Part shown: positions 7,417 through 10,816 of the stretch, piece after piece
Position numbering within the stretch: position 1 is the stretch's first letter
How the letters are laid out: every line of letters begins with the position of its first letter
Assembly: GCA_951406725.2 (NCBI GenBank)
Contig: OX597815.1
Coordinates: 50,282,001-50,346,000 of the forward strand
Direction: 5' to 3'
DNA from: Octopus vulgaris
Taxonomy: Eukaryota
DNA: 64,000 nucleotides
Program-made: the position numbers and the translations under genes
The notes under the pieces: generated by a model
Told to the model about the DNA's origin: nothing
Databases searched by the model: none
What the model saw: the letters and a program-made list of their open reading frames with translations, nothing else

Positions 7417-8422
7417 CGTTGTTTTCTCACAGCACAAAGCTGTTCATCATAATTTTTATAGTTTTCCAGCCACCCATAAATTAGAAGAGCTGACTAAATT
7501 GTTATGTCTTTGTGACTATGTAAGTCTCCCAGACAACAACTCCAGTAGGTGTGGTGTTTTAATAATTAATAAAAAGTATAGATTAAGGCATGGGCTAGTC
7601 TACTGCAACCACTTGATTAGATGTAAAATTACTTTTCCAAGTATCAACAACTAATTTCTATTGAGCATGTTAAATGTTTTTCCTAAAAACTACTAAACAT
7701 TATTTGCAATTGGAAAGTTGAGCATAAGAAACTGGCATGATGGATAAAAGCTTTCAAATGATGAGTCACTGTAGTCAAATGACTGAAACGTGTAAAAGAA
7801 TAAAAAAAATATATATATATACGTATATATATATACACACACACATATATATATATATATACATATACATACATACATATACATATATATACATACACAT
7901 ATATATACACATATATATACATACATATATATATATATATATACTGTTGTGTCTGGGGAGAGTGTTACATTATAAGGCACAAAAAGAAAATAACTCTCCC
8001 AGACATAACAGAATATGCTTCAACATACGAACTCATAAAGAATCTTGCAAACCAAATCCAAAAACGAAATATATATATATATATATAGATAGATAGATAG
8101 ATATAGATATAATATAAATAATATATAAATATATGCATATATATACATACATATATGTACATACCTACATATATATGTATATATACATGCATATATGGGT
8201 ACAGGACATCAAAAAAACATTAAACATAATGAGAAACGAAAACATAAAAATGAAAACATTGAAAACGAACTTTTTATCGAACAAAAAAAAATAGAGAAAT
8301 GGGACATGCAACATAAAGAATATTCCCCTTCATCAGTTGTCCCTGTTTCATCTACTCCGTGTTTCATATATATATAGACACAAACACACACACACATCTA
8401 TATATATATCCTGTTTTACATA

Positions 8423-9613
8423 TGTGGGGATGAGCCGGAAGAAGAGGGCCATAATGTCAATGGTCAAGGGACTGACAGAAAGAGGAAGTGAGGCGGGGCG
8501 ACAGTAGAGGGTTGCCCTCTTTTGGCCGGCTGAGGTATTGCGAATGGATGTCAGGGGAATTCGCTCTCAGGCTGGTGAGATAACAGCTGCTTATATTGGG
8601 TGATGGGGTAGGACAGGATCGCCGGAGTAACTACTACTAGATGGATGCAGATGAGAGAGGAAGGTAGGTGAACCTCTTTTCATCTCCCACGTACAACAAG
8701 CTATTTCAGTAATTTCGTTGTCCCTTTGTGTAGTAGCCTGGATTCGAAAGGTCAAAGTTGTGACCAGGCTACAAGGCATTGAAGATGTAGTGAGCCTCAT
8801 GGCCTTATATTTGGAGGGGAGTGCACTGGCACTGTACCTCGAAATAGATGAAGAACAACTGAGCATGGTGAAGATTAAACAGCACTCGAGAGAGGATTAC
8901 ACAGATGGAGAGTATGCCATTTTTGGGAACAGGTTGATGAATATGCTGTAGAGGTACGGATGCTGGTTGTCTGGTCTTATCAGTGAGGGACTTCAGAAAG
9001 TAGGCTTTTGTGAACAGCTTTCCTGACGATGTGTTGGTGTGACTACAACAGTTGCCAGGTGGCAACAAAATGTCAATGAGCAAGCTCATCATTCAAGCCT
9101 ATGTGTTGACACAATACACTGGGCAGAAGGCAGTGGTGATGGTGGCTGCAGAAGCCCACGAATCTGCATAACAGCCAGTGAAGGATGAAAAGAGATCTGC
9201 TGTGGAATGACAGTGGCTGTTCACAGGCTGGTGTTTTAAGTGCCAAGGACTGCACATGACGAGGGACTGTATGGAGCCTAGACTGGTTTGCTACCAGTGC
9301 AAACAGACAAGGCATATTGCCCGAATTGTAGCCAGGGAAAAGGCCACGGGGAGGTTGTTGCCTCTCAAACTTCCCTTGCAAACGAGTAGAGGTGTTGATG
9401 AAGTCACTGCCTGTGGTTGAGATCATGGTCAGGGAAAACATGTTTAAGGCCTTCATGGACATGGGCTGCATGATGACTCTCATGACCCTGAGGGTGACAA
9501 AAAAACAAAAGAGGACAACCTTGTCCTGTCCCCCTCCTCACTGCACTTCCCTTCTCAAGCTTCCTCTTCCGGTCAGTCCCTTGACCATTGACATCATGGC
9601 CCTCATCCCCACA
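8423..9613 (+). mobile_element. Decayed Ty3/Gypsy-type gag-protease element with inverted LTR-derived ends and 5-bp TSD (ACATA)
   Basis: Starts TGTGGGGATGAG and ends CTCATCCCCACA. ACATA at 8418-8422 and 9614-9618. Gag-like VVAWIRKVKVVTRLQGIEDVVSLMALYLEGSALALYLEI; zinc knuckles CFKCQGLHMTRDC and CYQCKQTRHIAR(N)C from 9232; aspartic-protease-like SLPVVEIMVRENMFKAFMDMGCMMTL at ~9400-9480. Confidence 0.9.
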
Positions 9614-10816
9614 ACATATTTATTTTAGAAAAACATTATTTTCTATTTTCAAAAGAGTGAGGAAACTTATTATCCTAAAATATGATACAGTATAATAGTA
9701 ATTCTGTTTAATTATGAGGACATACTTGGTCCAATTGTCCAGGTGGTTTGGGTATTAGTAGTATAAACTGAACAATAGGACAGTAGATCTGCTACCTTAG
9801 AAGCCCAGGACCATGACATTCCAGGGATTTCATGAGATTAGTGGGCACAGCAGTGTGATTTAATGAATGTATTGCCAAGATAGGTGATGTCTGTTATAAG
9901 GAAGTGAGAGATGTGAGGAAGAAATAAAGAGTAGAGAGAAAACGTGTACTTTAAGAAGCTTAAGTGACTTCAGTTGATCCATGTTGTTAGCTGTTTTATA
10001 TTAATGTTTAAGTGACTTTTGAGTAGTTCATATTACTCCAAATAAAAGGATCTACTAATTAAAATGTAGAGACTGTAAAAATAGATTATGTAAGATTGAC
10101 AGTCTATTTAATGCAAAGACTTTATATACTATAAACTATACTGGATAACATAAGGAAAAAATCCTCAAGGAGTTGTGATTTTTTTTTTTTTTTTTTGCTG
10201 AAAGAAAATAAAAACACCTGGTGATAATTACTATTAACTCTCAAATGAAAGAGGGAAATAATTTCAAGAAATTAGGAATTGGTTTCACAGATTAGGGGGA
10301 AAATTTGATATTTGTTACCAGGCAGGGTGACTACTACAGACTCAAGCAAGTTTGAGAAGACTATACTTTGCAGAAAAGGACAAAATAAGATTGAAACATG
10401 CTTATAGCTATCTTACTGGAACTTAACTTCCCAGCCAAGAGCCTTAAAACTGGCAACAATATTTCCCCTCTTTTTCAAGCAAACAAAATAAAAGAAGTCT
10501 CTCCCAGAATGTTGAAAATGTACGGAAAAATAATTAGAGGTCATACCAAGTATAGAAGAGTAGAAAGTTTGAAACTAGAAAGCTTTTGTTATCATAGATA
10601 AAATTTAAGCAGCTAGTCTATCAAAAGGTGATCCAGCTAGCCTTTAACTCCAATTATTACAGAAATTTTTTGTTTCTGCTATATTAGCAATTATTAGCAC
10701 TGGAAGCCAATGTAATCAACCTACCCTCTCCTCTTAAATTGCTGGCCTTGTGCCGAAATTTGAAACCCTTCTTCTTCTTCTTCTTCTTCTTCTTATTATT
10801 ATTATTATTATTATTA

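Follow-up and report, generated by a model that had tools for sequence, protein, structure and literature searches.

A dead LTR-retroelement insertion with a U3 end at both tips in Octopus vulgaris, and its probable origin in reverse transcription

Anatomy of the insertion and its parent family

A short insertion on Octopus vulgaris contig OX597815.1 carries inverted LTR ends at both tips and the same five bases on both flanks, which raises the question of how such a unit was made and whether it is a transposon in its own right. It lies in the stretch of 64,000 nucleotides analysed here (the window; C2:50282001-50346000 of a 2.8-Gb genome). A preliminary description took it to have integrated as one piece through two copies of the U3 end, either as a non-autonomous TIR-like derivative of an LTR retroelement or as a one-off event. 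We found that it is a dead LTR-retroelement insertion of ~1.2 kb with a U3 end at both tips (Table 1). As had been described, its arms (8423-8524 and 9506-9613) are reverse complements, ACATA stands on both flanks, and the interior holds a decayed gag with two zinc knuckles (Pfam zf-CCHC E 8e-4, under the family cut-off) and the start of a protease, with D-M-G at 9458 and the first ~33 codons present. The element begins with TGTGGGG and finishes with CCCCACA. Since the arms differ by 8 substitutions in 88 aligned bases and by two gaps of 12 and 19 bases, their match is neither chance nor an echo of the assembly; the best arm-to-arm BLAST piece in a search within the window is 48 bp at 92% (E 7e-14). 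The reading of both arms as LTR ends stands for the right arm, an inverted partial LTR, whereas the left arm proved to be the start of a whole 5' LTR followed by a PBS. That the 5' LTR is whole and the abnormality limited to the right end follows from longer family copies, which have direct LTRs. At the junction, 9509-9518 also matches the reverse-complemented LTR pyrimidine tract.

Table 1. Features of the window element (positions in the window) and the three copies with a U3 end at both tips
Feature	Position	Strand	Remarks
Left TSD	8418..8422	.	ACATA, direct reading; family TSD length 5 bp
Complete 5' LTR	8423..8698	+	276 bp, TGT...ACA; private ~12-bp deletion near 8490
PBS	8699..8710	+	2 mismatches vs common form; complementary to tRNA-Phe(GAA) nucleotides 1-12
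Deletion site, ~90 bp	8714..8731	+	gag start removed; element 292/309 aligned to natural copy 293/387
Decayed gag	8731..9330	+	stops and frameshifts
Zinc knuckles within decayed gag	9232-9270 and 9289-9330	+	
Aspartic protease, N-terminal part	9407..9505	+	cut at junction; catalytic Asp codon 9458-9460
Junction zone	9506..9518	+	9509-9518: up to 9 of 10 bases in register with family protease sequence
Inverted LTR positions 1 to ~113 (U3 end)	9506..9613	-	private 12-bp deletion, ~6-bp insertion
Right TSD	9614..9618	.	ACATA, direct reading; family TSD length
U3/U3 copy, window	8423-9613		flanks ACATA/ACATA
U3/U3 copy, L082	C1:30243481-30244402 (L082 4531-5452)		922 bp; flanks GGCTT/GGCTT
U3/U3 copy, L135	C16:57038628-57039298		within TA run, TSD uninformative

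Whole-element BLAST gave at least 96 matches (40 of 304 candidates scored), and 29 other loci, 69-86% identical to the window element, were fetched. The junction point of the window element is reached by 23 of them, all of which continue into the protease; the other six end earlier. The autonomous parent, whose reconstruction had been proposed as a check, is an element of ~4 kb with direct LTRs of ~290 bp, TG...CA ends, a PBS, a G-rich PPT and 5-bp TSDs. Among 17 direct copies the 5-bp TSD is perfect in 10, has one mismatch in 6 and two in 1, so that 16 of 17, allowing no more than one mismatch in the 5 bp, show the 4-6-bp duplication of an LTR retrotransposon. The gag tree is star-like, with copies ~20% diverged. 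A leading G is frequent in the target 5-mers (GTTTC three times, GTTAC, GTTTA, GTATA, GTCAC), hinting at a target preference of the family. Solo LTRs also occur: one at L130 4200-4701 (-) is more diverged, has the same ends and belongs to a related subfamily, and a single one is present twice at L099 (C3:160099086 and 160108468), 9.4 kb apart with shared flanks, by local duplication.

The parent family holds gag, protease, RT, RNase H and a DDE integrase. Its domains were recognized in Pfam as RVT_1 (E 1e-3), RVT_3 (E 1e-6) and rve (E 0.02), the integrase has PDB matches at E 5e-9, and the protease profile matches Ddi1 and retroviral proteases. RVT_1 was found on many of 78 homologues; the named relatives are from crustaceans, a bryozoan and an argonaut, and DUF7047 is present on many. 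A whole-frame Pfam scan recovered DUF7047 alone, and a PDB search with one RT stretch as query gave no match. The family RT in L031 (7222-8316, -) and L155 (8443-9900, -), which carries DUF7047, scores 19 bits for RVT_1 against a cut-off of 29.6, and its best PDB matches are retroviral. The RT profile weakly matches MLV, HIV and two other RTs (E 1e-4 to 1e-2), no chain among its 21 matches is named Ty3, and the Atlas neighbours are viral RT clusters. The order PR-RT-RH-IN fits Ty3/Gypsy (Metaviridae), the putative placement given in the preliminary description, albeit it is common also to BEL, retroviruses and Troyka. As judged from sequence, the parent may represent an unclassified LTR lineage spread across invertebrates. 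It resembles the Troyka/Kuafuorterviruses in being a divergent animal LTR lineage with this domain order (PMC12440569, PMC11673190). In contrast to the CG...CG ends, 3-bp TSDs and I/V/LADD motif given for Troyka in the available text of these sources, the octopus family has TG...CA ends and 5-bp TSDs, which rule out identity with Troyka, and the one family RT inspected at this motif reads YIND.

The PBS of the family is also unusual. In 25 copies found by motif, the 12 bases directly 3' of the 5' LTR are one sequence with 0-3 mismatches (9 exact). At all seven loci scanned, out of 100 pattern matches, the tRNA-Phe(GAA) genes of this genome begin with the complement of that 12-base sequence. 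It thus pairs with nucleotides 1-12 of tRNA-Phe and not with the tRNA 3' end, which suggests that a 5' fragment of tRNA-Phe serves as primer. The primers treated in the available text of PMC10886601 are of the 3'-end and anticodon-loop types only, and no PBS at a tRNA 5' end was found in the literature searched, in which subscription papers are thinly covered. Apart from the family, tRNA-Phe-like 5' ends form a tandem array of ~48 with a 200-bp period (G000:C18:30147728-30157146) and other clusters on C6 and C18.

Recurrence of two-U3 copies and the nature of their joints

Two U3 patterns with 91 and 84 matches defined 109 LTR starts in 86 clusters and recovered 28 of the 29 starts in the BLAST set, in which close copies are over-represented. 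From the loci mapped (87, then 12 more), we picked by hand 20 copies that retain both ends plus interior sequence, leaving aside seven solo-LTR rows, 21 U3-start copies with no partner end, and copies with a 3' LTR only. Seventeen of the 20 are direct and three are U3/U3 (exact 95% CI 3-38%). The preliminary description had named direct LTRs in all other members, together with a unique junction, as the finding that would speak against it; L082 and L135 are also U3/U3. The sequence enclosed by the U3 ends of L082 comprises the 3' portion of the integrase gene as well as the PPT and a small fragment of RT. Four more copies contain an inverted U3 joint: L081 and L136 have the inverted tip at one end and have lost the opposite end, and L086 and L133 go out into the inverted U3 and then back to sense sequence. 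LTR base 1 is the precise outer end of all five terminal inverted arms (window, L082, L135, L081 and L136).

No terminal U5/U5 pair was present among 80 U5-pattern matches; L083 has opposed U5 matches, one of them inward-facing. No short hidden arm with a TSD was found in the 21 one-ended copies. In L046 (1765-1780) the protease sequence gives way to AAAAAG..CCCCACA, which may represent an inverted arm that has collapsed, and the flank of this doubtful 7-base tip is mismatched to the left 5-mer. In seven other copies (L088, L108, L110, L117, L128, L129 and L143) the 5' LTR ends early, after 57-262 bases, with a forward jump in sense, and some of these retain both ends and the TSD; they may represent premature plus-strand transfers or later deletions. 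Other internal inversions occur in L083, L094, L115, L126 and L131.

The duplication is best seen at L082, which sits in a host repeat. In all nine empty copies examined (of 42 matches), the repeat aligns to both flanks and contains a single target 5-mer, either GGCTT or a variant of it. This proves that the GGCTT duplication is a true TSD, and fusion of two insertions is thereby excluded for L082. Because the right flank of the window element is single-copy in the genome, its own TSD is judged from the 5-bp habit of the family and from the rate of chance matches, 2 in the 1332 ordered pairs formed by 37 family flank 5-mers, which together point to a genuine duplication. The proposed integration in one piece by two U3 ends is thus borne out by the family TSD length and the empty sites of its sister element.

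At all seven inverted U3 joints, a purine tract in the sense interior shares short microhomology with the LTR complement. The match is at most 9 of 10 in-register bases for the window element, about 8 in L082, 9-12 at one gag site common to L081, L086 and L136, and 4-5 in L135 and L133. The switch point lies at LTR 105-114 in the window element, L081, L082 and L086, at ~123 in L135, at ~270 in L136 (the second CCTCTTTTC tract) and at 36 in L133. LTR 105-123 thus accounts for five of the seven switches, which coincide with or closely follow the first plus-strand pyrimidine run of at least 7 bases (105-113). Scans of pairing energy and template fold did not single out LTR 105-125, other intervals giving equal or better minima.

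The joints are distinct. Genome-wide searches with junction patterns, which covered the window element, L082 and L081/L086, gave one match for the window element, one for L082 and two for L081/L086, at a sensitivity of ~0.4 at 15% divergence that could miss a few old copies. No second copy of the window junction was found by these patterns, by junction BLAST (40 of 100 candidates scored) or among the scored candidates of the whole-element BLAST. L081 and L086 share a junction pattern, yet they are not sisters in the gag tree, and none of 200 bootstrap trees unites the window element, L081 and L086 in one clade. An amplified non-autonomous TIR derivative, as had been considered, does not agree with the single junction match or with the relatives, every one of which runs on into the protease where it reaches the junction point. 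Of the one-off alternative, the uniqueness of the junction survives, but the architecture recurs.

Arm divergence is 0.091 in the window element, 0.125 in L082 and 0.142 in L135, as compared with 0.157 +/- 0.041 in 15 direct LTR pairs and 0.183 in 685 between-element pairs. These values fit arms that were alike at insertion, although a single template is not thereby proven. By nearness to the inverted arm of the window element, its own 5' LTR comes 5th of 37, a comparison that has no power because the family is star-like and burst-like. The idea that the arms come from different subfamilies is not in keeping with a divergence inside the range of direct LTR pairs, and a subfamily origin of the arm indels was discarded since the 12-bp tip deletion is private (absent from all 37 other LTR rows) and the 19-bp gap combines a left-arm deletion with a right-arm insertion.

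Origin of the second U3 end

What we observe is the anatomy, the 5-bp TSD habit, the recurrence with different joints and the microhomology at each joint. Our preferred reading, which we regard as probable, is that a strand switch during reverse transcription made a product with two U3 ends and that integrase then inserted it. The reasoning follows standard LTR reverse transcription, in which a precise U3 tip could be copied only from the PPT-primed plus strand. This strand would stop or leave its template after ~113 bases, presumably pausing at the CCTCTTTT tract; since pairing energy alone does not pick out the region, we infer a pause or border near LTR 105-125. The CCTCTTTT end of the plus strand would then anneal to the purine tract in the protease region of genomic RNA, and RT would extend the switched strand as a minus strand, backwards via pro, gag, PBS and U5-R. 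An ordinary plus strand would presumably anneal to the switched strand, completing the left LTR and both strands, and the resulting linear DNA with U3 at both tips would be inserted by integrase with a 5-bp TSD. Such a product should have two integrase-competent ends; with neither RT nor PPT nor a direct 3' LTR, it would be a dead end.

It is rather unlikely that two separate cDNAs each supplied a U3 end to one site and that host repair joined them at an inverted microhomology. Such joining would be expected to leave the same TSD and precise ends, agrees with microhomology at all joints, and suits arms that are not provably from one template. It also predicts U5/U5 products, whereas none was seen among the U5 matches against five terminal U3 arms, and it does not predict the clustering of five of seven switches. 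We favour a strand switch over the joining of two cDNAs because of this absence of U5/U5 copies and because of the out-and-back copies L086 and L133, which such joining leaves unexplained. The deletions and internal inversions in many copies, and their age, might suggest instead that the element went in as a normal direct-LTR insertion and that repair, or template switching at replication, afterwards exchanged its 3' part for an inverted U3 copy. In that case the inverted arm must adjoin the TSD exactly, although TGT/ACA is all that the usual U5 end has in common with the U3 start, and yet the landing is exact in all three U3/U3 copies, and the tips of L081 and L136 likewise coincide with LTR base 1; we consider later rearrangement quite improbable.

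Cut-and-paste movement by integrase of a non-autonomous DNA transposon with TIRs appears highly improbable. The TGT...ACA inverted ends of ~110 bp are inside the Ginger TIR range (PMC2836005) and L082 holds part of an integrase gene between such ends, but the window element encodes no transposase, its junction and that of L082 match once each, and the two copies sharing a junction are not gag-tree sisters. Bao et al. 2010 (PMC2836005), for whom, in the text available, the steps by which an LTR retrotransposon became a TIR DNA transposon are unclear, suggested two neighbouring insertions as the route to Ginger TIRs. For the octopus copies, two independent facing insertions fused by deletion, with 5-mers matching by chance, are scarcely credible: ~86 loci in 2.8 Gb would seldom land side by side, a 5-mer match is expected in only ~2 of 1332 pairs, and both flanks of L082 are a contiguous host repeat. 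With a strand switch as the preferred origin, the window element is likely a recurrent by-product of reverse transcription and not a member of an active TIR family.

Relation to known elements and significance

DIRS-1 resembles the window element in having inverted LTRs around retroelement genes, and DIRS was the only case of inverted LTRs with an integrase in the literature searched, in which subscription papers are thinly covered; no paper there combined inverted LTRs with a TSD. DIRS elements use a tyrosine recombinase and are not known to make a TSD. The octopus parent, in contrast, has direct LTRs and a DDE integrase, and a TSD is present.

Ginger1 and Ginger2/Tdd share with the octopus unit TGT termini, inverted repeats of 40-270 bp, a range that includes the arms of the window element, and an integrase-type TSD, which is 5 bp in TDD-4/5 (PMC2836005). 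Ginger encodes a transposase and forms families, as far as the available text of this source goes, whereas the octopus unit is single-copy and contains gag-pro remnants in place of an integrase-like transposase, its ends coming from an LTR retroelement; within the limited sensitivity of the junction search, no set of copies with independent TSDs was found.

Template-switch insertions with one TSD and asymmetric proviruses are known already. Sabot and Schulman 2007 (PMC1950507) described complex LTR insertions from abnormal template switching in reverse transcription, in which, as here, a single TSD and similar outer ends are read as one product inserted once. Unlike those products, which in the available text have direct LTRs and fuse two elements, the octopus strand would change polarity, and both tips are U3. 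In HIV-1 defective proviruses, misalignment in reverse transcription gave unequal LTRs in 26 of 88 and occasional inversions (PMC9278108); the cases in the accessible part of that report are direct 3' LTR deletions, not an inverted U3 tip as second integration end. The available text of a review of LTR reverse-transcription recombination (PMC6894440) describes no two-U3 product, and no description of U3/U3 insertions was found in the literature searched, which covers subscription papers and Repbase Reports thinly.

Without paired direct LTRs, U3/U3 copies would escape LTR finders or be annotated as MITEs. The rise of inverted U3 ends inside single insertions, repeatedly and mostly at one tract, would provide a concrete route to the TIR ends of Ginger, one that supplies ends and not excision. 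It is possible, albeit doubtful, that plus-strand derailment is routine in this unclassified animal LTR parent primed by a 12-nt 5' fragment of tRNA-Phe, giving about one in seven insertions two U3 ends, at times with integrase sequence inside as in L082, and thereby a repeatable one-step route from an LTR element to a Ginger-like TIR unit. The fixed switch point and the odd PBS lead to testable statements on priming and on the making of the plus strand in an LTR lineage that has received little study.
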